Position numbers and translations under genes: made by a program
IMG/VR virus record: IMGVR_UViG_3300009036_000501
DNA from: an uncultured virus (IMG/VR IMGVR_UViG_3300009036_000501)
Taxonomy: Duplodnaviria; Heunggongvirae; Uroviricota; Caudoviricetes
Reading direction: 5' to 3' (one strand)
Length of the DNA: 64,000 bases
Part shown: one piece after another, positions 8,900 through 30,007 of the stretch
Layout of the letters: each line of letters starts with the position of its first letter
How positions within the stretch are numbered: the stretch's first letter is position 1
Notes under the pieces: model-generated
Told to the model about the DNA's origin: nothing
The model's database searches: none
The model's input: the letters and a program-made list of their open reading frames with translations, nothing else

Positions 8900-8902
8900 C
8901 CT

Positions 8903-9017: not shown

Positions 9018-9024
9018 TAAATGA

Positions 9025-9098: not shown

Positions 9099-9105
9099 TT
9101 GACAT

Positions 9106-9236: not shown

Positions 9237-9254
9237 TTGACTGAAAAATGATAT

Positions 9255-9382: not shown

Positions 9383-9383
9383 A

Positions 9384-9587
9384 GTTTGTTGGTTTCACTG
9401 AGGCTCTGTACACTGCCCGTTCGAGTCGGGACCCCATAAACACTAGACTAGTCATCTATCTGTTTGGGGGATAAAGTGGGTACCAGTATACATCCACCGA
9501 GACGGGGTTCGATTCCCTACCGGTTCGTGAAGGTCTGACTAGCTGGATCGACCGGAGTTCATGGTAGTCTCGGTGAAGCCAATAAAC
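9384..9587 (+). ncRNA. ~204-nt RNA with 22-bp terminal stem and two T-arm modules
   Basis: 9384-9405 pairs with 9566-9587; CCCG-TTCGAGT-CGGG and GGG-TTCGATT-CCC. Confidence 0.7.
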
Positions 9588-15861: not shown

Positions 15862-15944
15862 ATTATGGAAGGGAGCGCCAACAACATGCGCTCCCTTCTT
15901 CATGTTTGTCATGCAATCAGTGGTGTGTAGAGCATGTATTTCAT

Positions 15945-16571
15945 ATCTACACCAAAATCTACACCAGATCTACACCGTCAATGTAGTATATGCCTCAAAT
16001 CTATATAAAATCTACACCAAATCTACACCAAATCTACACCTCGCACACAGTCCTTTTCTCGCAAACGCCTTGTGCTGATGGGGGTTTGGGAAATCTACAC
16101 CAAAATCTACACCAATACTTCTGATCCATCGGGAACGAGGTTCCAACCCCCTTAGATACCATAAGTATCTACACCTTTTTTATTTTTTTCTTTATAAGGT
16201 TTTATTAATTATTATATATCAGTTGGTGTAGATTGATGCACATTAATACCCCATGTTCGTGAGTGGTTATGCTTTATTTGATAAAAGTGTATATTGTTTT
16301 GGGACGGGTGGGGAAAGGTTATGGTATGTGGGGGTTCCGTGCAGGACTTTAACGTATGAAAGTGATGTGTTTTCTGGGGGGGTAGTGTCCACATGCCGAA
16401 ATCTACACCAATACACTGCTAGTATTGCCGTTGCCCCTTTTTAGCAAGTATTTGTGCATGGTGTAGACTTGGTGTAGATATGCGGTGACGGGGGGTACTC
16501 AGACTCCGTCCGAACCGAATTAGAGAAGTGGTGTAGATTTTGGTGTAGACTATGGTGTTATGGGTGTAGAT
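15945..16571. repeat. Iteron-like array (ATCTACACC) flanking AT-rich tract; putative replication origin
   Basis: 10 forward and 6 reverse (GGTGTAGAY) copies, often 11-12 bp apart; AT-rich 16176-16220. Confidence 0.8.
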
Positions 16572-16806
16572 TTGTCAATCCTAGGTACCTTGACTCACTA
16601 CATTCTATACATGGGCTGGATGTGCAAGGTGTGCCTATGAGGAATATACCACTCGTCATAGATACGCTTTGTGTAGGGAAACATCATACTCGAATACCAT
16701 ACACATTCAAGTTACATGCTGAATGGATTTTGGAATAAATCTTGACTTATTGAATGCAGGCATGGTGTCATTTATGACAAGATCCGTAAATAAGGGTGGT
16801 GTCTTT

Positions 16807-17643
16807 ATGCTTAAGAGTATTGGTTGGTTTGATCTTATTTCGGATGTCCATTTGGACTTTTGGATTTTTGTGAAGAATGTCAGTAGAGAGGGACAAGAAG
16901 AGAACATACGTGGATTTGTTAATATGTTGATTCCTGAAGTACCTTCAAAGGTTTTAGTCATTGCAGGAGACTTAGGGCATAAGAATGATCAAAATTTCGT
17001 GTTTCTACAGATACTGAAAGAAACATATGAATACATCTTGATAGTTCCTGGAAATCATGATTATTACCTGATCAATAGCACCGCACGTTATAAACATAAC
17101 AATCTTTCTTCTATGCGTTGGAAGGATATGAAACAGTTGGGTGCCACTTTGCCCGGTATTCACTTCCTAGAAGGTACAACTATCACTATTGATGGGACCA
17201 CATTTGGCGGTACAGGCATGTGGTACGACTTTTCTTATGGCATGCAGGTGTTGGGAAAGACTGATGGGGAAATGATGAGTTACTGGCGGGAGGAAATGAG
17301 AGACGCGAAATATATTCGCGGAGCTCAGACAAGACCACAAAAGTGGGCGGAAGAGGAATGTAAACTCCTTGAGCAGGTACTAGAGACATCAGACGTCATC
17401 ATCACACATATCGGGCCAGACTGGTCTGACCTTACATCCAAGCAGGTAGACGACATGGGCACCGGCTTTTACTACTTTGACGGCAGAAAATACCTAGAGA
17501 AGTGCGAAGGGAAGGTGTGGTGCTATGGTCATGTACACCACAACTCAGACTACACTGTGTCTGGATGCAGACTAGTGAATAACGCTCTGGGATACCCAAA
17601 TGAGAAAGCAGACATTGGCAAGATTGTGACTATAGAGTTATGA
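16807..17643 (+). CDS. Calcineurin-like metallophosphoesterase
   Basis: DVH, AGD, GNHD, THI, GHVH motifs. Confidence 0.9.
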   Translation: MLKSIGWFDLISDVHLDFWIFVKNVSREGQEENIRGFVNMLIPEVPSKVLVIAGDLGHKNDQNFVFLQILKETYEYILIVPGNHDYYLINSTARYKHNNLSSMRWKDMKQLGATLPGIHFLEGTTITIDGTTFGGTGMWYDFSYGMQVLGKTDGEMMSYWREEMRDAKYIRGAQTRPQKWAEEECKLLEQVLETSDVIITHIGPDWSDLTSKQVDDMGTGFYYFDGRKYLEKCEGKVWCYGHVHHNSDYTVSGCRLVNNALGYPNEKADIGKIVTIEL

Positions 17644-17876
17644 ACATAAATAGGGGGGTGTATGAAATTCCATACACCCCCTGTCATGTTTAACACGATT
17701 TGTTGAAATGAACACCATTGGCTTTCGTATTCTGGCAAGCTCACACCCCTGTGCAAATTCGGGGAGGATACTCTGAGTCTGCAATTCAAATGTAGTTCAT
17801 TTTACTTAAGATCTCGGAAAGGCTTCTGGAATATATCATGCGACATACTCTGATTTGGGTGTCCAGTCCACTTACA

Positions 17877-18176
17877 TCAGACATTATGCTTTGACAATTC
17901 ATTGAGACATTTTTGATACATCTTGTTGATGTAATTAGCCTTTTGTGTAGGTAATCCTTTGCCATTTGGGTATATGGGGAGGTTAATACTCACAGTATGG
18001 CCTGAAGTTTTTTCTTCAGCACGGAGTATAGGACCAGCACCTCTGGCCTCGAGTGTAGTAAGATCGACATTGGCAGGGAAAGGAATGAATTCTCCTTTGC
18101 GTAAAAACCCAACACGCCCGTCAAGTCCTTTGGCTTTAAAAAAGTCTCGTAATTCGATGTGAGTAACACTATACAT
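17877..18176 (-). CDS. Hypothetical protein
   Basis: 99-aa ORF, AGGAGG RBS. Confidence 0.6.
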   Translation of the reverse strand: MYSVTHIELRDFFKAKGLDGRVGFLRKGEFIPFPANVDLTTLEARGAGPILRAEEKTSGHTVSINLPIYPNGKGLPTQKANYINKMYQKCLNELSKHNV

Positions 18177-18309
18177 AGAAAGGCCTCCTAATATTATCTT
18201 TTCCTCCTTTTATATAAACACGAGAGAGGCTGTGGTGGCAACCATATGACACAGTTTATATGTGAGCAAGGAAAAGGGACTACAAAACGTGTAGTCCCCT
18301 TGGGATGTA

Positions 18310-18657
18310 TTAGATAAATAACAGAGTTATGATGGCAATGACTAAAACAACGAGAGCCGTGACCATAATAGGACCCATCAGCGAAAGAAGGATGTATGGT
18401 ACACCTACACCTTTTTCCTCCTTAACCTTGCGTGCCAAGTTATCGCTACTCTGTTTAATTTGGGCGAATGTACCAAGATTGACCCCGAAGAATTTCACCA
18501 TACACCAGGCAAAACTAGAAACGTAGATGATGGCGCCGACACCCAAAATTCGAAGACTTAGTGTAAGAGCCGCCACAACAATACAAACAAGAAACAAGAC
18601 CGAAGAAATGATAAGAACTTTTAGAGCTAACATACGACTGCTGATAGACATTGTCAC
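18310..18657 (-). CDS. Small membrane protein
   Basis: Three hydrophobic helices, AAGGAG RBS. Confidence 0.65.
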   Translation of the reverse strand: MTMSISSRMLALKVLIISSVLFLVCIVVAALTLSLRILGVGAIIYVSSFAWCMVKFFGVNLGTFAQIKQSSDNLARKVKEEKGVGVPYILLSLMGPIMVTALVVLVIAIITLLFI

Positions 18658-19115
18658 ACACTCCTTACATACATTTTATACCATATTCTAACATGATGGG
18701 CATTTGAGGGACAATCCGGGGGTCCGCATACATTGTATGGGTAATCCACATCACCATTGATATTGTCGAGGCCTCTCCGTTATCTCGAAGTAAATGTGAC
18801 TGATTGGGGGTGTGAAAGACCCATGCCATCGCCCTATCCGTGGACATGCTTAGGGTATACGAAGCCACAAGTGTGCCGGCTCAGGCATTCTGAGCATCAC
18901 TTTTGGGGTAAGAAATTTGTTGAATGCTCTCAGGTGTCTATAAGGATAACATGCGCTTGCCTTTAGTGGCCTTCGACGAGGGGCTTACCTGCTTCGAAAT
19001 ACACCCAACTTAAAGAAAACTCATTTTGTATTCTTGCATTGACAGAGCTGAAATTTACATGATGTGATCAGGATGGTTGAGATGCAGAATATTTGGGTAG
19101 AGGAGGTGTGATATA

Positions 19116-19259
19116 ATGCCAGCTATGTGGGAAGATATGTGCAGCAATGGGCGTGGCCCGTATAAGAGTGAAAAAGCAGAAGTGTCGGAAGAGAAGACTG
19201 AAACAGAGAAGGATCTACAAGAGTTAGAAGAGGAGCTTAAAGAAGGATTGCAAATATAA
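19116..19259 (+). CDS. Small acidic hypothetical protein (47 aa)
   Basis: AGGAGGTG RBS; MPAMWEDMCSNG... Confidence 0.55.
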   Translation: MPAMWEDMCSNGRGPYKSEKAEVSEEKTETEKDLQELEEELKEGLQI

Positions 19260-19516
19260 GGGCTTGCTAGACTAGTAGGTACCTTTTTGGCGAGCTCCAC
19301 TGAACGCACGTAGCAATTGAACTACACGGTGGCATGATATTCGGGTGAATGCGATCAGGTTGAATGATATCCAATTGTTTGACCCCATGGATATGGTGTT
19401 TAGGGGTATCGACTACACGCTCGCATAAGGTTTCATCCCTATAACACAATACGGCAAGACCGTTCATTGACAAGTGGAAGAACGGACATGGCGAGAGATG
19501 GACTTTTATATACCAC

Positions 19517-19546
19517 TTGACAAGATGACCACCGTTGTGGTATACT
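19517..19546 (+). promoter_or_regulatory. sigA-type promoter of leader cassette 1
   Basis: TTGACA-N18-TATACT with extended TG. Confidence 0.75.
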
Positions 19547-19612
19547 TATTTCTGTGAGGGGGATGAAATAAGCCCCTTCACCCCAACAACTACTAAAGGA
19601 GAGGTGTTTACA

Positions 19613-19738
19613 ATGACTACACTAACAATGACAAAACCCAATAATAAACTAGTCAACCTCATGCCTGCGGTATGTGTTAATTTAGCGTTACCCACAACAA
19701 AGAACACAGATTCCTTTTTATATTTAACAGACAGGTGA
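19613..19738 (+). CDS. Putative leader peptide 1 (41 aa)
   Basis: AAGGAGAGG RBS; MTTLTMTKPNNKLVNLMPAVCVNLALPTTKNT-DSFLYLTDR; followed by terminator. Confidence 0.75.
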   Translation: MTTLTMTKPNNKLVNLMPAVCVNLALPTTKNTDSFLYLTDR

Positions 19739-19763
19739 TGTGCTTACCTTTGCTCCTATACAT

Positions 19764-19806
19764 AGAGAGCGGTAGCCGTACTTGGCTACCGCTCTTTTGC
19801 ATTTTT
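19764..19806 (+). terminator. Terminator/attenuator 1
   Basis: GAGAGCGGTAGCC-gtactt-GGCTACCGCTCTT then T-rich tail. Confidence 0.8.
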
Positions 19807-19854
19807 CGAAAAATGCAATGACATTAGAAAGCAGATAGACAATAAGGGATATAT

Positions 19855-19883
19855 TGACACGTGTCCCGAATTTGTGATAGAAT
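19855..19883 (+). promoter_or_regulatory. sigA-type promoter of leader cassette 2
   Basis: TTGACA-N18-TAGAAT with extended TG. Confidence 0.75.
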
Positions 19884-19940
19884 ATGAAATATCAGGCGCA
19901 AAGCCAAAAATAAACCAATTACGAGAGGATGTGCACTAAG

Positions 19941-20135
19941 ATGAAAACTCAACTGATGAACAATGTTGTTAAGACACTCAAAACGAATATGAATCTAGTG
20001 CCGAACATGCCTAATGTATTGGTTTCTTTAGCATTGGCGCCAAAAACGAACGTGAATAACCCGAAGATGAAAACCAAATATATCTCTTATCATTTTAAGT
20101 CATACCCCATTCGTTATGTAGCTGGCATTCGCTAA
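19941..20135 (+). CDS. Putative leader peptide 2 (64 aa)
   Basis: GAGAGGA RBS; strongly biased composition; followed by terminator directly upstream of tsf. Confidence 0.75.
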   Translation: MKTQLMNNVVKTLKTNMNLVPNMPNVLVSLALAPKTNVNNPKMKTKYISYHFKSYPIRYVAGIR

Positions 20136-20164
20136 TTATTCGCTACGAATCGAAATTCGCTAAT

Positions 20165-20210
20165 AAAAGCGGGGTCACCTTAAAATATAAGGTGACCCCG
20201 CTTTTTGTTT
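20165..20210 (+). terminator. Terminator/attenuator 2 upstream of tsf
   Basis: AAAAGCGGGGTCACCTTA-aaata-TAAGGTGACCCCGCTTTTT. Confidence 0.85.
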
Positions 20211-20238
20211 ATCTGGGATGACAGAAAGGGAGATAATA

Positions 20239-20700
20239 ATGACAAAAGTAAATGAACAGATTGAAATGGTAAAAGCTTTGAGAAACGAAACTGGAGCTGG
20301 ACTCGTGGAAGCAAAGAAAACTCTGCAGTCTGTGGACTTTAACTACGAAGAAGCAAGGGCTATCTTGGCGGCAAAAGGTATTGAGAAAGTGCAGGCGAGA
20401 GAAGAGAAAGAAGTCCATGAGGGGATCGTATTTCAATATACACACCCCAGCAAAAGACTGGGTTCCTTTGTAGTTTTGAATTGCGAAACAGACTTCGTAG
20501 CCAACACAGACGTGTTCCAAGAACTAGCAAAAGAAATCGCGATACATGTAGCAGCCACAGATCCTCAGGACTCGAGAGAACTTATGGAGGCACAATACAT
20601 TAAAGATGAAACAGTGACGATAGCTACAATGGTGCAACAAGCTTCCGCAAAACTGGGAGAAAAAATTGTAGTGGCAAGATTCGCTAGGTTTGCAGTGTAA
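20239..20700 (+). CDS. tsf: Elongation factor Ts, short form
   Basis: VKALRNETGAG...KKTL N-domain and LNCETDFVA motif. Confidence 0.92.
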   Translation: MTKVNEQIEMVKALRNETGAGLVEAKKTLQSVDFNYEEARAILAAKGIEKVQAREEKEVHEGIVFQYTHPSKRLGSFVVLNCETDFVANTDVFQELAKEIAIHVAATDPQDSRELMEAQYIKDETVTIATMVQQASAKLGEKIVVARFARFAV

Positions 20701-20730
20701 AATACAGGCCACACATTGTGTGGCTATCAA

Positions 20731-20806
20731 CGGGAATTAGCTCAGCTTGGTTTAGAGCGCTTGCCTTGGAAGCAAGAGGTCGTCAGTTCGAATCTGGCAT
20801 TCCCGA
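20731..20806 (+). tRNA. tRNA-Pro(TGG)
   Basis: CGGGAAT/ATTCCCG, CT-TGG-AA. Confidence 0.9.
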
Positions 20807-20812
20807 TATTAT

Positions 20813-20891
20813 ACAGGCGTAGGGGAGTTTGGCCGTCCCCACACCCCTTGGAAGGGTGGGATCGCAGGTTCAAATCCTGCCGCTTGTACCA
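20813..20891 (+). tRNA. tRNA-Pro(TGG), A1-U72 variant
   Basis: ACAGGCG/CGCTTGT, CT-TGG-AA, CCA. Confidence 0.85.
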
Positions 20892-20892
20892 T

Positions 20893-20967
20893 GGCTGAGT
20901 AGTTCAGAGGTAGAACATCGGACTCATATCCCGAATGTCGCAGGTTCAATTCCTGCCTCAGCCACCA
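20893..20967 (+). tRNA. tRNA-Met(CAT)
   Basis: GGCTGAG/CTCAGCC, CT-CAT-AT, CCA. Confidence 0.85.
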
Positions 20968-20980
20968 ATAAAAACATCAT

Positions 20981-21057
20981 AGCTGGAGGCGAGGTTGGCA
21001 TCTCGACGAGGTTCATATCCTCGTGTAAGGGGGTTCGATTCCCTCTCGTAGCAACCA
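20981..21057 (+). tRNA. tRNA-Met(CAT), initiator-like
   Basis: 1:72 mismatch, bulged acceptor stem, TT-CAT-AT, CCA. Confidence 0.75.
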
Positions 21058-21058
21058 T

Positions 21059-21133
21059 GCACCCATCGTATAAAGGCTATTACGGCTGCCTTGTAAGCAG
21101 CTTATGTCGGTTCAAGTCCGGCTGGGTGCTCCA
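21059..21133 (+). tRNA. tRNA-Thr(TGT)
   Basis: GCACCCA/TGGGTGC, CT-TGT-AA, CCA. Confidence 0.9.
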
Positions 21134-21159
21134 AAATACACTATAAAGGACTGGTGTGA

Positions 21160-21321
21160 ATGGCAGACAGCGCACTGACTGCAGAACAACTGATTGAGGA
21201 ACTACAAAAGGTGAAAAATAAAAAGTCTAAAGTGTATTATGAAAGAGATTCTTGGAGCATTGAAGCAATTAATCGTGTAGTGGAACATAAAGAAGGCGAT
21301 GAGGATATAGTACTGTTGTAA
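21160..21321 (+). CDS. Small hypothetical protein (53 aa) inside tRNA array
   Basis: MADSALTAEQLIEELQKV..., AAAGGA RBS. Confidence 0.55.
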   Translation: MADSALTAEQLIEELQKVKNKKSKVYYERDSWSIEAINRVVEHKEGDEDIVLL

Positions 21322-21329
21322 CTAAATAT

Positions 21330-21404
21330 ACAGGAGTAGCTCAGCGGGAGAGCAGTCGGTTTACACCCGAAAGGTCGTGGGTTCAATCCCCACCTTCTGT
21401 ACCA
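21330..21404 (+). tRNA. tRNA-Val(TAC)
   Basis: ACAGGAG/CTTCTGT, TT-TAC-AC, CCA. Confidence 0.9.
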
Positions 21405-21415
21405 ATAAAAATTAC

Positions 21416-21494
21416 ACGGACATAGAGGAGTTTGGCCGTCCTCACTTCCCTTGGAAGGAAGGGATCCCTGGTTCGAATCCAGGTGTCCGTACCA
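21416..21494 (+). tRNA. tRNA-Pro(TGG), A1-U72 variant
   Basis: ACGGACA/TGTCCGT, CT-TGG-AA, CCA. Confidence 0.85.
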
Positions 21495-21495
21495 T

Positions 21496-21579
21496 GCAGC
21501 AGTGGTGGAATGGCATACACGTTGGTCTAAGAAGCCAATGCCGAAAGGATTGGGAGTTCGAATCTCCCCTGCTGCACCA
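21496..21579 (+). tRNA. tRNA-Leu(AAG)
   Basis: Class II cloverleaf, CT-AAG-AA, CCA. Confidence 0.9.
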
Positions 21580-21586
21580 AAAATAA

Positions 21587-21659
21587 GCTGGCATAGCATA
21601 ATAGGTAATGCAACCGCCTTGTAAGCGGGAGACTGGGGGTTCAAGTCCCTCTGCCAGCA
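21587..21659 (+). tRNA. tRNA-Thr(TGT)
   Basis: GCTGGCA/TGCCAGC, CT-TGT-AA. Confidence 0.9.
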
Positions 21660-21666
21660 TTTATGT

Positions 21667-21740
21667 GGGACCGAGGTGTGAAGGTGCACAACGCTCTTTT
21701 AAAGCGTAAGGAGACGGATCGTTACCGTCCGGTCCCACCA
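21667..21740 (+). tRNA. tRNA-Lys(TTT), atypical T loop
   Basis: GGGACCG/CGGTCCC, CT-TTT-AA, T loop ATCGTTA, CCA. Confidence 0.8.
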
Positions 21741-21803
21741 AAAAATTGAAGACCCCTAGTCAAATGACTAAGGGTGTGGAAAAGGTACTTTAATGATTTT
21801 TAC

Positions 21804-22190
21804 TCATACGACCCCCTCGAGGATCTCAGGTACACTGAGTGTACCAGGAGTGTTGAGTCTTTTCTCAAGGGATATTAGATACACTTCCAATCCATCGAGA
21901 TCTGTACGTGTTTCTCCATCACCACTTGTATGGTTGGATATTGCAGTTGATAAGTGATCCTGGATGATATCAAAGTTCTCTTGGTCGTTTGTGATGAGAA
22001 CTACGACACCGAAGTCATCATCATTATCTGCATCTAAAAACGTATCTTCTGTGAAACAAACAGCGTCAATCATGCTCATTCCTTTTTCAGCAAGAATTTT
22101 TGCCAACTCAAAGGTAGAGAGGCAAGCAGACGCAGCATCACTTTCACAACGATAAACTCTAATTCCGTAAACTTTTTGCACACATAACAC
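21804..22190 (-). CDS. Acidic hypothetical protein antisense within tRNA array
   Basis: 128-aa ORF, AAGGAG RBS, hairpin downstream at ~21752-21775. Confidence 0.65.
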   Translation of the reverse strand: MLCVQKVYGIRVYRCESDAASACLSTFELAKILAEKGMSMIDAVCFTEDTFLDADNDDDFGVVVLITNDQENFDIIQDHLSTAISNHTSGDGETRTDLDGLEVYLISLEKRLNTPGTLSVPEILEGVV

Positions 22191-22271
22191 TCCTTAGATT
22201 AGATTATACATCTAGTATAACATGGTGATAAAAGGTTGGCAAGTATTGAGTAAGACAACATATTACACTAT

Positions 22272-22347
22272 GGGGGTGTAGCTCAGATGGTAGAGCATCT
22301 GTTTTGCACGCAGAAGGCCAGGGGTTCAAATCCCCTCACCTCCACCA
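22272..22347 (+). tRNA. tRNA-Ala(TGC)
   Basis: G3-U70, TT-TGC-AC, CCA. Confidence 0.92.
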
Positions 22348-22374
22348 AAATACATTTGTTAGGAGCAAAGCACC

Positions 22375-22563
22375 GTGAACACTATCGAGTATGAGGATTC
22401 GCTTTGTTGCGATGATGTAGAGGTTACTATTGAAGGTGAACTTGTGGACACATATGGTGGAAACTACACTTACATGGACACTTTGTTTTGTAAAACACAC
22501 AACAGAAAGTTTGTAGAATATTTAGGCGGTAGATTCAATGGTATTGAAGAATTGTATGACTAA
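22375..22563 (+). CDS. Small hypothetical protein
   Basis: 62-aa ORF, AGGAG RBS. Confidence 0.5.
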   Translation: MNTIEYEDSLCCDDVEVTIEGELVDTYGGNYTYMDTLFCKTHNRKFVEYLGGRFNGIEELYD

Positions 22564-22576
22564 TTGAAGTTAATGC

Positions 22577-22648
22577 GGGCCTATGATGTAACGGTTAGCA
22601 TACACGCCTTTTAAGCGTGCTGCCTGGGTTCAAATCCCAGTGGGCCTA
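22577..22648 (+). tRNA. tRNA-Lys(TTT)
   Basis: GGGCCTA/TGGGCCT, CT-TTT-AA. Confidence 0.88.
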
Positions 22649-22657
22649 TAAAAATGA

Positions 22658-22731
22658 AGGGGTATAGCTCAATTTGGTAGAGCACACGGTTTGGGTCCGT
22701 GAGGTTGCAGTTTCAACTCCTGTTGCCCCTA
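22658..22731 (+). tRNA. tRNA-Pro(TGG)
   Basis: AGGGGTA/TGCCCCT, TT-TGG-GT; T-stem mismatch. Confidence 0.8.
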
Positions 22732-22736
22732 TTTAC

Positions 22737-22818
22737 GCAGATGTGGTGGAATGGCAGACACGGTAGATTCAAAACCTACTGCTTCGGCATGAGGGTTCAA
22801 GTCCCTCCATCTGCACCA
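22737..22818 (+). tRNA. tRNA-Leu(CAA)
   Basis: Class II cloverleaf, TT-CAA-AA, CCA. Confidence 0.9.
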
Positions 22819-22821
22819 TAT

Positions 22822-22907
22822 ACCTAAGTGGCGAAACAGGTAGACGCGGCGCACTGTTAATGCGTTTGTCCGCAAGGACTTTGCAGGTTCGACCCCTGCC
22901 TTAGGTG
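22822..22907 (+). tRNA. tRNA-Asn(GTT) with long variable arm
   Basis: ACCTAAG/CTTAGGT, CT-GTT-AA, V arm GTCC-GCAA-GGAC. Confidence 0.85.
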
Positions 22908-23011
22908 TTCAAGTTGCAGTTGCACATTTTCTTGACATGGTGTTCCTTTAGAGGATAATCTTGATGCAAACCCACAGAGACTGTGGCACTTGCATCACCA
23001 TGGAGGAAAAT

Positions 23012-23866
23012 ATGCCTATATGCAAAAAATGTACAAACGAGTTTCCTAACTTCTTAGAAGTAGAAGGACGGGTAAGAGAACTAAGAAAACGGAAGTACTG
23101 CCCCACATGTGTTCCGTTCAGACCGGAGGAAGAGGTATGGCGTAAAGTACACCTAAAGAAGGAAGGTGTCGTTCGCCTTTGTTCATCTTGTGGGGTTTCT
23201 CTTTCGCAGAGAAGAAAGTACTGCAAGACCTGCAATCCTAGGTATATGAAATGGGAAAATACCACTATAGGAGATCTGAAAGAGAAAGAAGGACAGCTAT
23301 ATGGACGCACTGTCCGTAATGTGGCACGAGATATTTATTATAGAAGTAGCAAACCGGTTAAGTGCTTGGTATGTTCGTATGAGAAAAACTTTCAGGTATG
23401 TCACATTATCCCCGTAGATAAGTTTTCGGATACGACCACTATTGCTGACGTAAATAATATAAGCAACCTGATGGCTTTATGCCCTAATCATCACTGGGAG
23501 TTTGACAATCACGCAATGGACCCACATGACCTTGAGAAAATACAGAATGCTGTGGGTGTACAGATATATACTATAGACACTAACGTATCGAAGAAAAGGA
23601 AAGTGCCACGAGAACGAGATAAGAAACCTTGTAAAGGATGCACTAACACAGTCACTGTATACTCTACTACGGGATACTGTCGAGCATGTATTTGTAGAAC
23701 AAATGGGATGAAAAACTTGCGTCGTCCAAGTTTCGATGAATTGTTGCAAAGCGTTACTGCAATCGGGTATAGAGCAACAGGTAGAAAGTACGGTGTTTCA
23801 GATGGCAATGTAAGGAAGTGGTTGAAACGGTATGGAGTAGACCCCAAGACTGTGAAGAAGATTTAG
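23012..23866 (+). CDS. HNH endonuclease with zinc ribbons and C-terminal HTH (putative homing endonuclease)
   Basis: CHIIP...NLMALCPNHHWEFD, several CxxC, C-terminal GRKYGVSDGNVRKW. Confidence 0.85.
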   Translation: MPICKKCTNEFPNFLEVEGRVRELRKRKYCPTCVPFRPEEEVWRKVHLKKEGVVRLCSSCGVSLSQRRKYCKTCNPRYMKWENTTIGDLKEKEGQLYGRTVRNVARDIYYRSSKPVKCLVCSYEKNFQVCHIIPVDKFSDTTTIADVNNISNLMALCPNHHWEFDNHAMDPHDLEKIQNAVGVQIYTIDTNVSKKRKVPRERDKKPCKGCTNTVTVYSTTGYCRACICRTNGMKNLRRPSFDELLQSVTAIGYRATGRKYGVSDGNVRKWLKRYGVDPKTVKKI

Positions 23867-23886
23867 GCAGATAATTCTGCCAATAC

Positions 23887-23959
23887 GGGATATTAGCTCA
23901 GCTGGTAGAGCAGGGTACTCTTAATACTCAGGTCGCATGTTCAAATCATGCATGTCCCA
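23887..23959 (+). tRNA. tRNA-Lys(CTT)
   Basis: GGGATAT/ATGTCCC, CT-CTT-AA. Confidence 0.9.
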
Positions 23960-23967
23960 TAATATAC

Positions 23968-24048
23968 GCGGTAGTGGTGGAATGGCAGACACGCCAGACT
24001 TAGGATCTGGTGTCTCACGACGTGGGGGTTCAAGTCCCCCCTACCGCA
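23968..24048 (+). tRNA. tRNA-Leu(TAG)
   Basis: Class II cloverleaf, CT-TAG-GA. Confidence 0.9.
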
Positions 24049-24074
24049 TTAAATATTGATAGAGGAGATAAAAA

Positions 24075-24587
24075 ATGAGTGAGATCAAACTAGAATACAT
24101 TGTACCAGAAGATGTGCATGAATATTTTAAGATCTTTAGCGATACTGAGATCACTAGTACATTGATATTTCCTGAAGGTTATCCTCCAGAAACTTCAGAA
24201 GGATTAGCAACCCTGTGGGAAAAAGAAGGATACTTCAACACAAATGATGTAGATAGCATGGACGATATCCTTTTCTCTATTAAGCAAAATGAGGTTACTG
24301 TAGGATACTTATATCTTTCCTACATCGACAGAAAAGAATCCTCTGCAGAGCTGGAAATAACACTGTGTGCGTCAAAACATTGTGGTAAAGGTTTGGGAGC
24401 AAAAGCAATATATAAGGCAAAAGATTTCGCGTTTAGTGAACTTGGTCTGAAAAAACTCTATCTACATGTATTAGAGTCTAACACAAGAGCCATCCGATGT
24501 TATGAAAAATGCGGTTTTGTAATAGACGATACTGCAACGCGGAGTGAAGCGGGTGTAATCAAAATGTGTTTGCCTGAGAGGAAATAA
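24075..24587 (+). CDS. GNAT N-acetyltransferase (RimJ/RimL-like)
   Basis: GKGLG acetyl-CoA loop, NTRAIRCYEKCGF. Confidence 0.85.
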   Translation: MSEIKLEYIVPEDVHEYFKIFSDTEITSTLIFPEGYPPETSEGLATLWEKEGYFNTNDVDSMDDILFSIKQNEVTVGYLYLSYIDRKESSAELEITLCASKHCGKGLGAKAIYKAKDFAFSELGLKKLYLHVLESNTRAIRCYEKCGFVIDDTATRSEAGVIKMCLPERK

Positions 24588-24606
24588 GTACAATCTATGC
24601 TTTTTC

Positions 24607-24679
24607 GGGGACGTAGCTCAGTTGGTAGAGCAACCGGCTCTTAACCGGTAGGTCGTGAGATCGTAGCTCACCGTCCCCA
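24607..24679 (+). tRNA. tRNA-Lys(CTT), atypical T loop
   Basis: GGGGACG/CGTCCCC, CT-CTT-AA, T loop ATCGTAG. Confidence 0.85.
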
Positions 24680-24687
24680 TTCAATAT

Positions 24688-24776
24688 AGTCCCTTAATTC
24701 AACGGGAGAATAACTCGCTTACAACGAGGAAGCCCTTATAAGGTTTATACAGGTTCGAATCCTGTAGGGACTACCA
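24688..24776 (+). tRNA. tRNA-Val(TAC) with long variable arm
   Basis: AGTCCCT/AGGGACT, CT-TAC-AA, V arm AAGCC-CTTATAA-GGTTT, CCA. Confidence 0.85.
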
Positions 24777-24784
24777 ATATTTGT

Positions 24785-24859
24785 GGGGTCTTGGTCTAAC
24801 GGTATGACACATGCTTTGCAAGCATGCTGATGCGGGTTCAACTCCCGCAGACTCCACCA
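24785..24859 (+). tRNA. tRNA-Ala(TGC)
   Basis: G3-U70, TT-TGC-AA, CCA. Confidence 0.9.
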
Positions 24860-24881
24860 AAATATCATTAATAAATTATAC

Positions 24882-24959
24882 ACGGATGTGACGGGAACTG
24901 GCATACCTAGATGATTCAGAATCATCTGTTTGTGGGTTCAACTCCCACCATCCGCACCA
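24882..24959 (+). tRNA. tRNA-Leu(CAG) lacking long variable arm
   Basis: TT-CAG-AA, 5-nt variable region, A1-C72 mismatch, CCA. Confidence 0.8.
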
Positions 24960-24964
24960 AACAC

Positions 24965-25050
24965 GCGAGTGTGGTGGAACTGGCAGACACCCCAGACTTA
25001 AAATCTGGTGTCAGGTAACTGGCGTACGGGTTCGACTCCCGTCATTCGCA
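24965..25050 (+). tRNA. tRNA-Leu(TAA)
   Basis: Class II cloverleaf, CT-TAA-AA. Confidence 0.9.
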
Positions 25051-25074
25051 TAAAACAATCAAAGGAGAAATATT

Positions 25075-25896
25075 ATGCCAAGTTTGGCTAGAGGTGTCGA
25101 AATTTTACAGAGCAGAACATGCGATTCTATGAAGGATGGACTAAAAGTGTTTGTTACACCAAGCAGCATTCTCATGTATTATGAGAAAAAAGAAATCCTA
25201 CAATCTGATATCTTTGACTCTGCTACCTTCTCTAGGGAAGATGTCGAAAAAGGAATACATACTTTCAATGGAATGAAGGCATCGGATGCTATAAGGTCCG
25301 GAAACCCTATTTTAGAAGTGCTTGCGCTTTTGGACATAAAAACAGGTAAGCGGACTTTAGATGCCTTTGGTAAAGAAATATCATCCAAGCACCTAGGTGT
25401 ACAAAAAGTGTACAATGTGCGTACTCAAGCCGAAGATAGAAGGAGAAGGACTAATGTGGTTAATGCGTTTTTTAAGTCAAAAAACACTGTAGAGAGGCAA
25501 ATAAGCAATCTGGCACACAGCCCTTTTGTGATTGACGGGAGAGAGTGTGCCTCGATCGAAGGGTTCTACCAAGGAATAAAACGTGCTGGAATGGACATCC
25601 AAGACCATGTTTTTGCTACATTCGGTATGAATGCTAAGAAACAATCCAAACCAACAAAGCATGTGTACTTTGGGGATTTTGTGTATGAGATTGGTAGTGA
25701 TGAACATCATGAACTAATATATAAAGCACAGTTATGCAAATACACTCAGCACCAAGGGTCAAGAGAGGCCCTATTGTCTACCGGCAACGCGAGGATTACG
25801 CATAAAGCGGGCAGAGACAGTGAATTTTACCCTGCTAGAGTGTATTGCAGACATTTAACCCAAATACGATCATTGTTACAAAAAGGTAGATTATGA
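25075..25896 (+). CDS. Protein with C-terminal NADAR-like (T4 gp30.3-type) domain
   Basis: SNLAHSPFVIDG...SIEGFYQGIK and ALLSTG...ITH motifs. Confidence 0.65.
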   Translation: MPSLARGVEILQSRTCDSMKDGLKVFVTPSSILMYYEKKEILQSDIFDSATFSREDVEKGIHTFNGMKASDAIRSGNPILEVLALLDIKTGKRTLDAFGKEISSKHLGVQKVYNVRTQAEDRRRRTNVVNAFFKSKNTVERQISNLAHSPFVIDGRECASIEGFYQGIKRAGMDIQDHVFATFGMNAKKQSKPTKHVYFGDFVYEIGSDEHHELIYKAQLCKYTQHQGSREALLSTGNARITHKAGRDSEFYPARVYCRHLTQIRSLLQKGRL

Positions 25897-25995
25897 CCTA
25901 GCCATATAGCATGAATAAGGGGATCCGCAGACAGCAGATCCCCTTATTTCTATATTCCCATCGGTTAACCAGACCATCCTTTCTTTTGAGTCTCG

Positions 25996-26739
25996 TTAAA
26001 GGCGCGTCTCTGAAGCTACTTTTCCGTTTTTCGCTCGTATATCCTCCTTTGCACCTCTCTCTATAAGTTTTTTAATGGTGTCCATTTCCTTGTACATATA
26101 AGCAAGATGCAGCGGGGTGAATCCATCTTTATCCTGAGCGTTAATATCAACATTATAAGAGATGAGGATATCAAGTAATTCCGGGATTCCACAAACACCA
26201 ACTATATGCATCAAATTTTGCTCTCTGTTATCAAGTGCATGCACATCGGCCCCATTACTAACCAAGAGATCTATAAAAGCAGGAATACCTTCTTTACGTG
26301 CTCTGACAAGGGAGGCATGCAGCGGGGTGCTCCCGTCAAGATCTTTTGCGTTGACCTCCGCTCCATACTTAAGCAACGTATGAGTAATTTCGATGTCATC
26401 TATCGTGGCCGCCTCATGGAGGAGAGTGCTCCTACGATCTCCACGAATGTTTACATTGGCCCCTTGCTCGATTAGTGCTTTAGCCAGTCTAGGACTACCA
26501 CTGATCATAGCATAGGTCAATGCTCTCACACCAGAATCAGATGTTGCTTCTGGGTTTGCACCAGCATCCAATACATGGATACCCACTTCTACGTATCCAT
26601 TAATAGCACAGTATGTTAGAGGGTTATGACCATATAGCTCATCAGTCGTAGCATTTATATCCTCTAAATCAGTGAGAGCAAGTATATACCCGAGAGTATC
26701 ACTTTTTTCAATATTTTCTAGGAACATTGTTATAGACAT
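25996..26739 (-). CDS. Ankyrin repeat protein
   Basis: TLLHEAA...GAEVNAKD, GSTPLH, GFTPLH repeats. Confidence 0.9.
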   Translation of the reverse strand: MSITMFLENIEKSDTLGYILALTDLEDINATTDELYGHNPLTYCAINGYVEVGIHVLDAGANPEATSDSGVRALTYAMISGSPRLAKALIEQGANVNIRGDRRSTLLHEAATIDDIEITHTLLKYGAEVNAKDLDGSTPLHASLVRARKEGIPAFIDLLVSNGADVHALDNREQNLMHIVGVCGIPELLDILISYNVDINAQDKDGFTPLHLAYMYKEMDTIKKLIERGAKEDIRAKNGKVASETRL

Positions 26740-26930
26740 TTGCAGACACTCCTTACACATATTTATATAGTGATTGTATCATACATAATGCATGTGTTAC
26801 AAGACTGTCACAAAGCTCCCAAGCTCGCTTATTGCCTCTATGTATCGTATGGAAGTGAATATCGCCTACAAATTAAAAAAAGAAGGAGTATGCTCTACTC
26901 CTCCTTTTTTTATTCCAATAGATTTAGTCT

Positions 26931-27365
26931 TCAGATTTCTTCAAATTTCTGCCCAAACGTGAGGTTTATGTTGTTGACTTCTTCCGCTTCTACATTAATT
27001 CCGGATTTCTGTAAGAACCCCATAAGAGCATCCACCACTAATCTTCCCTGAGTGCCACTCATATGAGGCAGGTACATCGTACCAGAACCGAAGAAGACAC
27101 CGCCTGTTTCGGATTCTACTACTGTTTGCAGGGGAAAAGAACCAGTGTCTGTATGCACATTATACTCGACAAAGTCAAATGTACCGTGATCAAAATTGAT
27201 TTCATCTGCGTATTTCTCTTCAATGCTTTCCACATGGTTAAAAGCTACTTTTTGCCCAAACAAACCGTTTTTATCCATCTGGATTTGGTTTCTCAAGAAA
27301 ACTGAGAGTTGTTCTTTCTCCTTAAGGGACAATGACTGAATTTGCTCTTTGAGTTTTTCTAACAT
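26931..27365 (-). CDS. Hypothetical protein
   Basis: 144-aa ORF, AAGGAG RBS. Confidence 0.65.
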   Translation of the reverse strand: MLEKLKEQIQSLSLKEKEQLSVFLRNQIQMDKNGLFGQKVAFNHVESIEEKYADEINFDHGTFDFVEYNVHTDTGSFPLQTVVESETGGVFFGSGTMYLPHMSGTQGRLVVDALMGFLQKSGINVEAEEVNNINLTFGQKFEEI

Positions 27366-27401
27366 TAGTGTACACTCCTTTAAATTTGCATATAGGTTTT
27401 T

Positions 27402-27749
27402 TCAAGACTTTTGTTTTAAGTACGCTAGACAAAAAATGTATGCTGCTTCATAAATAGCTGAGCTAATAAAGTATTCTGCACCCTCATGTCGGTTGTCACG
27501 CATATATGCCTCTGGTGGATAATCATAGACATTCTGCATTACCTCCATGAGAGGAAATCCTGCTATTATGTCTGCACTCGCTGGACTGACAACTTCGTCA
27601 TCATAGTTTGGACAACCATCCCCGTCTACAAAGTCATTCGGGTACTTGGCCTCAATAGAAGCAATATACTCTGGCGTAATCAAGTGGCTGTAAGGTGCAA
27701 CATACTCCCAACCATCCACCTCTTTTACTACTTTTTCATCCCAAGACAT
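27402..27749 (-). CDS. Acidic hypothetical protein
   Basis: AAGGAG RBS before MSWDEK. Confidence 0.65.
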   Translation of the reverse strand: MSWDEKVVKEVDGWEYVAPYSHLITPEYIASIEAKYPNDFVDGDGCPNYDDEVVSPASADIIAGFPLMEVMQNVYDYPPEAYMRDNRHEGAEYFISSAIYEAAYIFCLAYLKQKS

Positions 27750-27901
27750 GACTAAACACTCCTTACGTATTTTTATGACTAAAGTATAACACAAGGGGTC
27801 ATTAGTGCACAATTCTGTATACCTGTATGTAACCGCTAATTTGGGTTGCACCATTAAGAAAAATAGAAAAGGCGACTAGAACTAGTCTAGTCGCTATTCC
27901 T

Positions 27902-28288
27902 TTAGTGCATCCAATATTTCTCTGCATGTTTCAGTAGGGTTTTTACAGTATCACCATACCTATGTGGCACATATAGATATGTGATAGGATCTTCTTTAGT
28001 TATTACCCGTACATTTTGTGCAGCATCCATGAAACCAACCACTAAAAGACTGCTTCCTTCCTTTAGGCCAACGACCACATCATCCTTTTGCATAGCAGCT
28101 TCCCACCCAGGCAACTTGACAGAGTAGGCACTGGATCTTCCCCTATATACACCCTTGAAATGTTTGTGTCCCACTTCAATTTCTGTTACAGACATACGCC
28201 GAACTATCGCCACCAGTAATATGCTCACCATCACTACCACACTAGCCATACCTAAAAATAATACTACTGTTCCCAGTATTGATAACAT
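27902..28288 (-). CDS. Membrane-anchored hypothetical protein
   Basis: N-terminal TM helix, AAGGAG RBS. Confidence 0.65.
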   Translation of the reverse strand: MLSILGTVVLFLGMASVVVMVSILLVAIVRRMSVTEIEVGHKHFKGVYRGRSSAYSVKLPGWEAAMQKDDVVVGLKEGSSLLVVGFMDAAQNVRVITKEDPITYLYVPHRYGDTVKTLLKHAEKYWMH

Positions 28289-28448
28289 TTAAAAACACTC
28301 CTTACATACATTTGTAAAATAATTATACCATATATAATGCAAGCATCACAAGACTGTCACAGCATTCTAAGTGTACGTCATACCTTGCCGAACAGCGTGT
28401 GAGCATGTTTTAATTAGTTAAACAACACATAATATGGAGGACTAATCA

Positions 28449-29276
28449 ATGTCTCGTACAAATTTGCTAAACGTCAAGGAACAAAACGACAGAATATTTG
28501 CTGATGGTGATTATGTAGTAAATGGGCGTGTGAAAAATATCCGTAAGGGTATGGAAGCTTCTGTGAAATCAACAGTTACATATACACCAGATGAATTGAG
28601 TCAGCTTCAAGTTAGTGAAAGCACAGCAACCACTACAATTAAGGTAAACAATCTGTCTACCTTTGAAGCAGCTAGGAAACTTGCAGAAGAAGGCTATAAG
28701 AATATTACATGCCTGAATTTCGCATCTGCGACAACTCCAGGTGGCGGATACGTGAAAGGGTCACGGGCGCAAGAAGAAGATCTTTGTCGTTGTTCGACAC
28801 TTTACCCTACACTGAATGAGAATATGTCCTTGTACCAACACAATCGGCGCAAGAGATACCCGATTTACTCCGACCATATGATCTTTTCTCCCAATGTTAC
28901 AGTATTTCGTGATGGCCGTTACAATTTGTTGTCGCTACCATTTACAGTCAATGTAATTACATCCGCAGCCGTAAATATGCGAGTGGCTCGTGCACATAAT
29001 GTGAGTGCAGAAGATGTGGCCACTGCTATGTACAAACGCATCAAAAAGGTGCTTTTGTTAGGCCTGCATCATGGCAGTGACGCCATTGTACTAGGCGCCT
29101 TTGGTTGTGGTGTATTCGAAAATGATCCTTCCACAATAGCAGATATCTTCCGCAGACTCTTGATGGAAGACGAACAAATCAGAGGTAAGTATAAGAATGT
29201 AACTTTTGCTGTTCTAGATAAAGACATGAAAGGTGCAAACTATTTGGCCTTTGATAAGGTGTTCGGTACACTTTAG
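28449..29276 (+). CDS. TIGR02452/DUF2263 PARG-like macrodomain protein
   Basis: LNFASATTPGGG...AQEEDLCR and LGAFGCGVF motifs. Confidence 0.9.
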   Translation: MSRTNLLNVKEQNDRIFADGDYVVNGRVKNIRKGMEASVKSTVTYTPDELSQLQVSESTATTTIKVNNLSTFEAARKLAEEGYKNITCLNFASATTPGGGYVKGSRAQEEDLCRCSTLYPTLNENMSLYQHNRRKRYPIYSDHMIFSPNVTVFRDGRYNLLSLPFTVNVITSAAVNMRVARAHNVSAEDVATAMYKRIKKVLLLGLHHGSDAIVLGAFGCGVFENDPSTIADIFRRLLMEDEQIRGKYKNVTFAVLDKDMKGANYLAFDKVFGTL

Positions 29277-29438
29277 AAGCAGTGGGAGGAAATGCATTTT
29301 CGGATGGCTCTGATAGATTAGAAGAAGGCGACTAGATACATCTGGTCGCCTTCTTGTGTTGCCAAAGATATATAAGTGCTAGCTTATGGGCAGTCGGGGC
29401 CCCGTTTTTGTTTTGGAGTATAAAAAAAAGGAGAGTTC

Positions 29439-29639
29439 TCACTCTCCTTTTGTCTTTAATATTGATTTGTATGCTCCTCTATATGATGTGATTCTCATGT
29501 AAGTTGTGTTATGTTTATTATCTTTTTTAGAAACTACCATATACAGTGAGTATACTCCAGCTATAGCCAACAGACCTGCAACCCCTACAACGCCAAAGAT
29601 TGTAAGATACGTGAACAATTCTACCACTTTCATATACAC
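29439..29639 (-). CDS. Small membrane protein
   Basis: Single TM helix, AAGGAG RBS. Confidence 0.55.
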   Translation of the reverse strand: MYMKVVELFTYLTIFGVVGVAGLLAIAGVYSLYMVVSKKDNKHNTTYMRITSYRGAYKSILKTKGE

Positions 29640-29864
29640 ACACTCCTTAGATTTAGTATATCCTTATAGACAAGTTATTTTACTCTATTTTAATCCTGAT
29701 TCCTTTTGTCGGCAATAATTGGAGAAGAGGTTGTTATATAAGTGAAAAATATGCTTTTTTGTAAATAAAGAAATATAAGCAACATTCTTGGCTATTGTTG
29801 CTATATGGGGTGGATTGACAACTGTAAGTAGTAGATGATAAACTACATTATGAACATTGAACTT

Positions 29865-29937
29865 GCCTCTATAGCCAAGTGGAAAAGGCACTAGTTTCCT
29901 AAACTGGGACGCGTATGTTCGAATCATACTGGGGGCG
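29865..29937 (+). tRNA. tRNA-Arg(CCT), stand-alone
   Basis: GCCTCTA/TGGGGGC, TT-CCT-AA, TTGACA upstream and hairpin terminator downstream. Confidence 0.88.
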
Positions 29938-30007
29938 TTTGGGAAAGAGGTGCGGGCGACTGCATCTCTTTTCTCTATATCTGGCTAAGATGAAGGGATT
30001 GAACAAA

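Follow-up and report, generated by a model that had tools for sequence, protein, structure and literature searches.

Two short leader reading frames ahead of a large-phage tRNA array are largely written in the amino acids of that array: candidate sensors of tRNA demand

Why would a phage place two short reading frames, each with a promoter and a strong terminator of its own, directly ahead of its tRNA genes and write them almost entirely in the amino acids that those tRNAs serve? The question is raised by positions 19517-25050 of a stretch of 64,000 nucleotides (nt) from an uncultured virus (IMG/VR record IMGVR_UViG_3300009036_000501; Caudoviricetes), hereafter called the window, in which two leader open reading frames (ORFs), L1 and L2, precede tsf, the gene for elongation factor Ts (EF-Ts), and an array of 22 tRNA genes. 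An initial annotation of this DNA had seen in the leaders a codon inventory of the array, and hence a candidate attenuation system that senses many tRNAs. Here we find that leaders and array are tied at the level of amino acids or codon boxes, that the tie recurs with other alphabets in two further phages, and that the layout of the locus suggests attenuation. The window (42.2% G+C) comes from a large (jumbo) phage with a Gram-positive host: it encodes a ribonucleotide reductase that shares 63% identity with the Bacillus phage G enzyme, its other products include topoisomerase II subunits, ankyrin-repeat proteins, PARG-like and NADAR-like proteins and a PurZ-like enzyme, and its expression signals are consensus sigma-A promoters and GGAGG-type ribosome-binding sites (RBSs).

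The leader alphabets and the tRNA set

The array was called with ARAGORN, which finds 22 tRNA genes at 20731-25050 for eight amino acids and bears out the anticodons listed in the initial annotation: Pro tgg (four genes), Met cat (two), Thr tgt (two), Val tac (two), Leu aag, caa, tag, cag and taa (one each), Lys ttt and Lys ctt (two each), Ala tgc (two) and Asn gtt (one). The gathering score of the Rfam tRNA family is exceeded by 21 of the 22, the weak one (27 bits) being the Met cat gene at 20982-21052. Long variable arms are present in the sole 'Asn(gtt)' gene of the array (22821-22908, 88 nt) and in one 'Val(tac)' gene (24688-24776, 89 nt); as such arms are normally confined in bacteria to Leu, Ser and Tyr tRNAs, the amino-acid identity of these two genes is less sure than their anticodon. 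The tRNA-Leu at 21496 has the unusual anticodon AAG.

We then compared the leaders with this set. In L1 (19613-19738, plus strand), 31 of the first 32 codons specify one of the eight amino acids, the exception being Cys21, and in L2 (19941-20135, plus strand) the same is true of 44 of the first 46, with Gln4 and Ser29 as exceptions; the counts given earlier for both leaders are thereby confirmed. Over the whole ORFs, 34 of 41 and 48 of 64 codons lie in the set. The eight amino acids make up 46.5% of the 16,836 codons of the 63 long ORFs of the window, and against this background the binomial tails are 9e-10 (L1) and 7e-13 (L2) for the chosen stretches and 1.7e-6 and 3.4e-6 for the whole ORFs. 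The post hoc choice of stretch is removed by a six-frame sliding scan of the entire 64 kilobases (kb) in windows of 32 codons (n=127,810), where L1 and L2 take the two top places with 31/32 each and the next best reaches 26/32. When all 125,970 eight-letter amino-acid sets are tried, only 2 cover L1 as well as the tRNA set does, 4 do so for L2, and 2 for both jointly. The tie between the leader alphabet and the tRNA set is real and not due to chance.

Base composition was considered as the source of the alphabet and is ruled out by codon periodicity and by the occurrence of Met without Ile. G is never found at the second codon position in the alphabet part of L2 (0/46) and once in that of L1 (1/32), while 37% of the third positions of L2 are G; Met occurs five times in L2 and three times in L1, and Ile in neither alphabet part although ATH codons outnumber ATG. 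The constraint is on the amino acid or codon box, not on bases. The clear three-base periodicity also supports coding.

Leaders and array agree in amino acids or codon boxes, but not codon by codon. The initial annotation had paired five different Leu codons of L2 with the five Leu anticodons of the array; the five codons are present, but CTC is not a Watson-Crick partner of anticodon AAG and cognate codons are not enriched in the leaders (see below). The diversity of codons in L2 is marginal (24 distinct against 21.2 expected, P=0.05) and L1 shows no excess. A box-level match would nevertheless be all that such an array could sense, because its four-codon boxes would be served only by U34 tRNAs.

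L1 and L2 are probably paralogues. In a relaxed tblastn search of the window each is the best non-self match of the other (12 of 27 residues identical, E value 0.03-0.05), a kinship that rests on the relaxed search because default BLASTP gives no L1/L2 alignment, which is a first point against the attenuation reading weighed below. Alignment of their DNA reveals common blocks, and nine of the 12 identical residues are encoded by the same codon, in the blocks CTAGT, CATGCCT and TTTAGC. At the 15 replaced positions, the residue is still in the set 14 times in L2 and 12 times in L1. Because these replacements are non-conservative (N/P, L/N, A/N and T/K swaps) yet remain inside the set, selection appears to act on set membership rather than on a fold. 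The searches likewise give no sign of a folded or conserved protein in the leaders: neither has a Pfam or PHROG match, L2 finds only itself (on a 239,444-base contig) among 5.8 billion proteins, tblastn of L2 against 50,697 phage records returns matches at E=9 only, and the Atlas model has a predicted local distance difference test score (pLDDT) of 0.44 and no neighbours.

Layout of the leader units

The leaders form two units in series on the plus strand, and the promoter, RBS and strong terminator that had been noted for each were all recovered. Unit 1 starts with P1 (19517-19546), a sigma-A type promoter of the form TTGACA-18-TATACT with an extended TG (11/12 positions match), which is followed by a 5'-terminal stem-loop of the transcript (19554-19581, paired in both the minimum free energy and the centroid structures) and by the L1 RBS (AAAGGAGAGGTG, 19595-19606), read from the sequence 6 nt ahead of the ATG. 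L1 itself has 41 codons and a stop, with an alphabet part (codons 1-32) and a non-set tail (codons 33-41). The intrinsic terminator T1 (19764-19797), with a stem of 15 base pairs (bp) and -26.3 kcal/mol, lies 25 nt past the L1 stop. In unit 2, promoter P2 (19854-19883; TTGACA-18-TAGAAT, extended TG, again 11/12) precedes L2, which has the RBS GAGAGGA and 64 codons plus stop (alphabet part, codons 1-46; non-set tail, codons 47-64), and the intrinsic terminator T2 (20165-20205; 18-bp perfect stem, -31.1 kcal/mol) is placed 29 nt past the L2 stop, with 33 nt left up to the start of tsf.

Downstream of T2, tsf (20239-20700, plus strand) has its own RBS and no promoter of its own was found. It encodes a short phage EF-Ts of 153 amino acids, whose match to PF00889 (64.3 bits against a cut-off of 27, E 1.5e-17) covers only profile positions 3-76 of 204; other short EF-Ts forms (149-153 amino acids) exist at 42-45% identity. 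The first tRNA starts 30 nt past tsf. No promoter was seen between T2 and the tsf and tRNA genes, as claimed earlier for the gap before tsf, the scan (which detects only sigma-70-type promoters) giving no plus-strand promoter-like site in 20206-20731. A second, phage-specific promoter motif was also considered and rejected: the enriched GTATGTA/TATACAT words sit where transcripts begin, downstream of sigma-A promoters, and the stretch from T2 to tsf has none. By contrast, the lone tRNA-Arg at 29864 lies directly behind a promoter of its own. Read from the sequence, the order of promoter, RBS, ORF, spacer of 25-29 nt and strong terminator, then tsf and tRNAs with no promoter found between, is the layout of a leader-peptide attenuator, complete except for the switch.

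The array itself is in two parts. The first block (20731-21740, plus strand) holds ten genes (Pro, Pro, Met, Met, Thr, Val, Pro, Leu-aag, Thr and Lys-ttt) and a small ORF at 21160-21321. The second part (22272-25050, plus strand) holds twelve (Ala, Lys, Pro, Leu-caa, Asn, Lys, Leu-tag, Lys, Val, Ala, Leu-cag and Leu-taa), among which lie an ORF at 22375-22563, an HNH endonuclease gene (22961-23866) and a GNAT gene (24075-24587). They are split by a minus-strand ORF for 128 amino acids (21804-22190), with a promoter-like site at 22242-22214 and a terminator at 21775-21752. The proposal that the array is switched on as a set is weakened by this opposite-strand gene and by promoter-like sites at 22236 and 22932 inside the array.

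Several other elements were seen around the leaders. Between T1 and P2 lies a perfect 22-bp palindrome, TTGCATTTTTCGAAAAATGCAA (19797-19818), present in a single copy in the window, which overlaps the T-run of T1, lies 36 nt ahead of the -35 element of P2 and is matched in 0/100 shuffles; it is possibly an operator or a second hairpin. Just upstream of P1, in a region (18700-19500) that is otherwise ORF-poor, a third small ORF (19116-19259) with a strong RBS encodes a very acidic product of 47 amino acids. The stretch 20127-20163, around and past the L2 stop, holds two copies of ATTCGCTAA and one of ATTCGCTAC; the stop and the two codons before it lie within the first copy. The three ATTCGCTA(A/C) copies there could form short hairpins, but with only 5 bp each these make no credible switch. 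The C-terminus of L2 (...AGIR) may echo the GIR of the SecM arrest motif.

Matched leaders in other phages

The initial annotation had asked whether leader composition varies with array content elsewhere, and the same layout was indeed found with other alphabets in two public genomes picked on other grounds: Bacillus phage G, the nearest named relative by its reductase, and LR756511.1, an EF-Ts match. In phage G, the first tRNA region contains Cys, Asp, Phe, Tyr, Glu, Thr, Ser and Trp tRNAs, and the annotated gp86 (44 amino acids, with an RBS) stands directly ahead of it. In the gp86 stretch CSWFEFDTDFTDVFYCEYTFYSLYTFLD, 25 of 28 residues belong to {C,D,F,Y,E,T,S,W}, the very amino acids for which its cluster has tRNAs; the stretch ranks at the top of 43,676 windows from three phage G loci, and only 35 of 125,970 sets cover the first 31 residues of gp86 as well. 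The gp86 stop is followed by 34 nt, an 11-bp terminator, 8 nt and then tRNA-Cys. Here the predicted structures compete: tail codons 31-37 of gp86 pair with the 5' arm and loop of the terminator with a gain of -12.1 kcal/mol (-4.7 +/- 2.7 in shuffled sequences, 1/100 as good), the terminator state is favoured by only 2.9 kcal/mol, and the two pairings are mutually exclusive.

In LR756511.1, a 595-kb uncultured phage, a promoter, a leader of 27 codons and a 17-bp terminator precede a cluster of Ser (four), Leu (five) and Tyr (two) tRNAs, and in the leader 15 residues are Ser, Leu or Tyr, with each of the six Ser codons in use. When the best 20-residue windows of the leaders were tabulated against all arrays, 20, 20, 19 and 15 of 20 residues fell within the set of the leader's own array and 6-12 within those of the others. 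Chance is unlikely because each leader fits its own array best, and because three unrelated leaders with three alphabets each stand before a terminator and their own tRNAs, coincidence and an ordinary small gene are both hard to hold. Two further candidates were rejected: a Met-rich window of LR756511.1 lies off-frame inside a gene, and the top row of a survey of 118 loci (18 clusters), a Glu/Lys candidate at locus L092, looks like the end of an ordinary Glu/Lys-rich protein.

Related genomes were also examined for the tRNA surroundings. Few or no tRNAs lie near other phage EF-Ts genes (few or none in loci L001-L023, none in L107 and L108), and among the Bacillus phages with the most similar ribonucleotide reductases, Nachito, HSE3, BCD7 and YungSlug have 0 tRNAs and PBS1 has 1. 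Elsewhere in LR756511.1 (232000-240000, minus strand; locus L115), EF-Ts is followed by same-strand tRNAs (Thr x3, Gly) as in the window, and no matched leader was found upstream of this unit. In Bacillus phage phiNIT1 (locus L118, ~3700-3916), a tRNA-Ser lies behind a TGTTATAAT -10 element and a leader of ~100 nt; the leader contains a direct repeat, a terminator-like hairpin abuts the tRNA, and there is no alphabet-matched ORF. The second tRNA region of phage G (locus L106, 5915-7546 and 10561-10869) holds a TROVE-domain (Ro-like) RNA-binding protein, a transfer-messenger RNA (tmRNA) and a tRNA with anticodon tta.

Close relatives of the locus itself were sought as well. No match to 19400-20750 was found by blastn against phage records, EF-Ts finds 23 loci in IMG/VR, all at 34% identity or less, and its best matches are at 42% in metagenome contigs and, apart from itself, at 45% in the protein database. 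The metallophosphoesterase used as a query finds no relatives in IMG/VR or the genome contigs, and a degenerate pattern of the L1/L2 common blocks gives 0 matches in viral and genome contigs. Relatives of ~90% identity are present in other soil and root sequencing runs (X2-X4). A contig of a ~91% identical relative from an RNA library spans T1, P2, L2, T2 and 425 nt of tsf and is compatible with read-through, although a contig does not prove one transcript and the library may contain DNA; that 19000-19620 is not covered in this library (X2) carries no weight. Array content varies among the relatives, since two tRNA genes, Pro (21416-21494) and Leu-cag (24882-24959), are missing from some (joints 21398-21489 and 24859-24956), and since in the ~90% identical relatives the region of the HNH endonuclease and the Asn tRNA (22821-23873) is replaced by 205 other letters.

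Two observations elsewhere in the window can be added. The stretch 7400-9560 combines dense consensus promoters (7417, 7499, 7994 and 8747) with tRNA-like pieces: ARAGORN calls two Met-cat tRNAs and, at 7562, one tRNA whose anticodon has 2 nt, extra genes appear at 9106-9236 (59-nt insertion), 9255-9382 (29-nt) and ~8040-8528 (398-nt) when introns are allowed, and more T-arm motifs can be read at ~8508, ~8945 and ~9505. Interrupted, split or permuted tRNA genes may lie behind these pieces, in which case the window may contain tRNA types beyond those called. The ORF at 2032-3282 matches PHROG 1211 '2-aminooxy adenylosuccinate synthetase' (PurZ-like, E 1e-60), which suggests that 2-aminoadenine may take the place of adenine in the phage DNA.

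Attenuation, its competitors and known systems

How, then, could the leaders act on the array? We lean, by a little, towards the reading that L1 and L2 are translated cis-regulatory leaders that sense decoding speed and, standing in series before an EF-Ts and tRNA operon, gate read-through of their terminators. In this mechanism the host RNA polymerase would start at the strong P1 and P2, and a ribosome would load on the leader and read 32 or 46 codons nearly all drawn from boxes served by the downstream tRNAs. When reading is fast, the ribosome would reach the non-set tail and the stop, T1 or T2 would form and only a short leader RNA would be made. When any set codon is read slowly, be it that host tRNAs are scarce, uncharged or cut or that phage tRNAs are not yet made, the ribosome would lag, and the RNA of the tail and spacer, left uncovered, could pair with the terminator's 5' arm; with that arm paired, more polymerases would continue into tsf and the tRNA genes, and the new tRNAs would speed up leader reading and close a feedback loop. 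What we infer here is that the leaders are translated, that stalling relieves termination, how far the transcript extends and what sets the response off in nature, which may be tRNA cleavage by host defences, as first proposed, or plain feedback on tRNA supply. Of the attenuation proposed in the initial annotation, the alphabet tie and the attenuator layout stood, whereas the alternative pairings do not exceed shuffled sequences and no single-codon match was found.

We looked for the switch by RNA structure prediction. The candidate antiterminator strand in unit 2 lies in the L2 tail (20096-20108, plus strand) and can pair with 20171-20182 of the T2 5' arm, a weak pairing that is not above shuffles. 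In a ribosome footprint model, a ribosome no further than codon 45 leaves this strand free and one at codons 55-60 covers it, and sequestration of the 5' arm amounts to -9 to -13 kcal/mol against -5.5 to -6.4 kcal/mol, going back to -7.9 kcal/mol at the stop codon; as modelled, the geometry of ribosome positions in unit 2 is right but weak. A long-range hairpin is also predicted in unit 2 (19912-20027, plus strand), in which the L2 RBS and start (19921-19942) pair with codons 18-29 (19993-20018) with probabilities of 0.9 or more (z score -2.1, 7/200 shuffles as good); it would restrict loading to a ribosome trailing the polymerase. Its counterpart in unit 1 is insignificant (z -0.26). The whole unit-2 transcript folds better than shuffles (z -6.4), mostly owing to T2. 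No T-box was matched by Rfam in 15000-30000 at E up to 1, and no family reached its gathering score in 19500-20230, the sole row there being mir-3156 on the T2 hairpin (24 bits against 76). By these models there is not demonstrably a switch in this window.

A number of results weigh against attenuation. The best upstream duplexes with the terminator 5' arm, at -11.9 (unit 1) and -11.6 (unit 2) kcal/mol, are matched by 53% and 68% of 300 shuffles; with the loop included, the gains of -10.5 and -9.2 kcal/mol are equalled in 14/100 and 9/100. The terminators are more stable than the alternatives by 16.5 (T1) and 22.4 (T2) kcal/mol, unit 1 shows no dependence on ribosome position in the footprint model, and the LR756511.1 leader has no significant antiterminator (28/100 shuffles as good). 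At the codon level, those with a Watson-Crick partner in the array are not enriched (19/32 in L1 and 25/46 in L2, against 60% in window genes), and codon rarity in the leaders is ordinary. With 41 and 64 codons the leaders are long, and their sensor codons extend over 96-138 nt, where known leader peptides bunch their regulatory codons beside the switch. T1 gates only entry into the P2-L2 unit, and the Ala and Asn tRNAs may not depend on T2 because of the opposite-strand gene and the promoter-like sites at 22236 and 22932. Coupling of the trp type is also made harder in Bacillus subtilis, where RNA polymerase is reported to outrun the ribosome. Finally, the layout is not general: it was found at one of the two tRNA regions of phage G (no leader was found at region 2) and at one of 17 clusters of LR756511.1 (none at the 16 further clusters), and no matched leader was seen in phiNIT1, in PaBG or at locus L021, where the tRNAs lie directly behind a promoter without a leader.

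Such results leave room for other readings. One that is unlikely, though serious, is that L1 and L2 are ordinary self-contained early genes for small, basic, disordered peptides acting in trans (for example, in host take-over), with T1 and T2 merely ending their transcripts; tsf and the tRNAs would then be reached by leaky read-through or from unrecognised promoters, and the alphabet match would be indirect or coincidental. It leaves unexplained why the two most alphabet-restricted stretches of 64 kb stand directly before the matching array and why the layout is repeated with other alphabets in two unrelated phages, and it has to accommodate peptides with no homologue, family or confident fold, whose paralogous replacements are non-conservative yet within the set. 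Nevertheless, each unit is complete with its own strong promoter and terminator, the third small ORF (19116-19259) makes the region look like a small early gene cluster, a conserved block is common to L1 and L2, and the window contains no significant antiterminator, all as expected of such genes.

It is improbable that the RNA is conserved and not the peptide, the units then being structured small RNAs or cis elements for a phage antitermination factor, T1 and T2 being passed later in infection, and the ORFs being incidental. Antitermination sites of this kind are exemplified by lambda nut and HK022 put. The identical codons at nine of 12 identical residues would fit, all the more as the blocks CTAGT, CATGCCT and TTTAGC are the predicted pairing partners of the unit-2 RBS and start region (z -2.1), and so would the fold of the unit-2 transcript, though its z of -6.4 is mostly that of T2. 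Conserved RNA fits poorly, however, with a three-base periodicity that keeps G from codon position 2, with frames open for 41 and 64 codons that both have RBSs, with the lack of an Rfam family at gathering score in 19500-20230 and with the insignificant unit-1 hairpin, and it offers no reason for an amino-acid alphabet to track the tRNA set in three phages. Least probable of all, the leaders could be checkpoint peptides, trans-acting regulators whose synthesis (and not read-through) needs the phage tRNA set so that the phage programme waits for working tRNAs, which would account for the alphabet match without an antiterminator and would suit strong promoters and stable-looking 5' ends as marks of abundant messages, but family, homologue and fold searches give no evidence of any peptide function, and the constant terminator between leader and tRNAs in three phages and the phage G antiterminator are left unexplained.

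Returning to attenuation, it is quite possible, if not quite to be expected, that unrelated large phages share 'tRNA-demand sensors', that is, leader ORFs spelled in the boxes of the array and coupled to a terminator, which would hold back transcription of a tRNA set, and here of EF-Ts as well, unless ribosomes are slow to read those codons. To our knowledge, almost nothing is known about the regulation of phage tRNA genes. In the passages retrieved by our full-text literature searches, no description of leader-ORF control of phage tRNA genes was found. The purpose of these tRNAs has long been debated, the proposals being codon compensation, replacement of degraded host tRNAs and escape from anticodon nucleases (PMC10264068, PMC11464382). 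If true, the proposed control would make phage tRNA arrays an inducible, self-limiting response to shortage (from codon-usage mismatch, host shut-off or host anticodon nucleases), through which the phage gauges decoding capacity and supplies tRNAs on demand. The leader alphabet would be a readable label of the tRNAs that matter in a given phage-host pair, and an alphabet match with a terminator would be a sequence signature for finding such control in metagenomic phages. Attenuation logic, familiar from the supply of amino acids, would extend to the decoding machinery itself and to as many as eight amino acids sensed together, and the leaders would offer a natural multi-codon stalling reporter. 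The idea is directly testable because Bacillus phage G, which is cultured and has a laboratory host, carries a clear example with a competing antiterminator.

Leader-peptide attenuators are familiar from trpL, hisL and pheL and, in multivalent form, from thrL (Thr/Ile) and ilvL (Ile/Leu/Val). These attenuators of amino-acid operons (ribosome-mediated transcription attenuation; compare PMC1183508 and PMC3082878) share with the phage loci a short leader ORF rich in the sensed codons, an intrinsic terminator and controlled genes with no promoter between, and the 25-34 nt from stop to terminator seen here are in the same range. They differ in controlling biosynthetic enzymes where the phage targets are tRNAs and EF-Ts, and in sensing one to three amino acids where the phage alphabet comprises seven or eight; the phage leaders have two to four times the length and their sensor codons are scattered along it, and the window has two promoter-bearing units in series and no significant antiterminator. 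Closer in its target is the pheM leader of E. coli pheST, where an aminoacyl-tRNA synthetase gene is attenuated. It is likewise a case of a decoding-machinery gene under attenuation, with charged tRNA being sensed, but pheM concerns a single amino acid and a cellular gene and has the classical 1:2/2:3/3:4 structure.

In the Firmicutes, the bmrB leader of Bacillus subtilis bmrCD is a ribosome-mediated attenuator that senses slowed translation. There too, in a Gram-positive bacterium, slow translation of a leader ORF opens a terminator and translation in general is sensed, but attenuators of the bmrB type respond to antibiotics, have short leaders and no codon alphabet tied to the regulated genes. 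T-box riboswitches also sense tRNA status and control a terminator in Gram-positive leaders; unlike the proposed system, they bind uncharged tRNA directly and without translation, and no T-box match was found in 15000-30000. The polycysteine leaderless short ORFs of mycobacteria are reported to be Cys-responsive attenuators (bioRxiv 10.1101/834739), in which, similarly, the codon content of a short ORF makes a downstream operon respond to the decoding of those codons, though for a single amino acid and a cellular operon. The logic of the phage leaders would thus be that of known leader-peptide attenuation, and what would be new is the tRNA and EF-Ts target, the alphabet of seven to eight letters and the tandem units.

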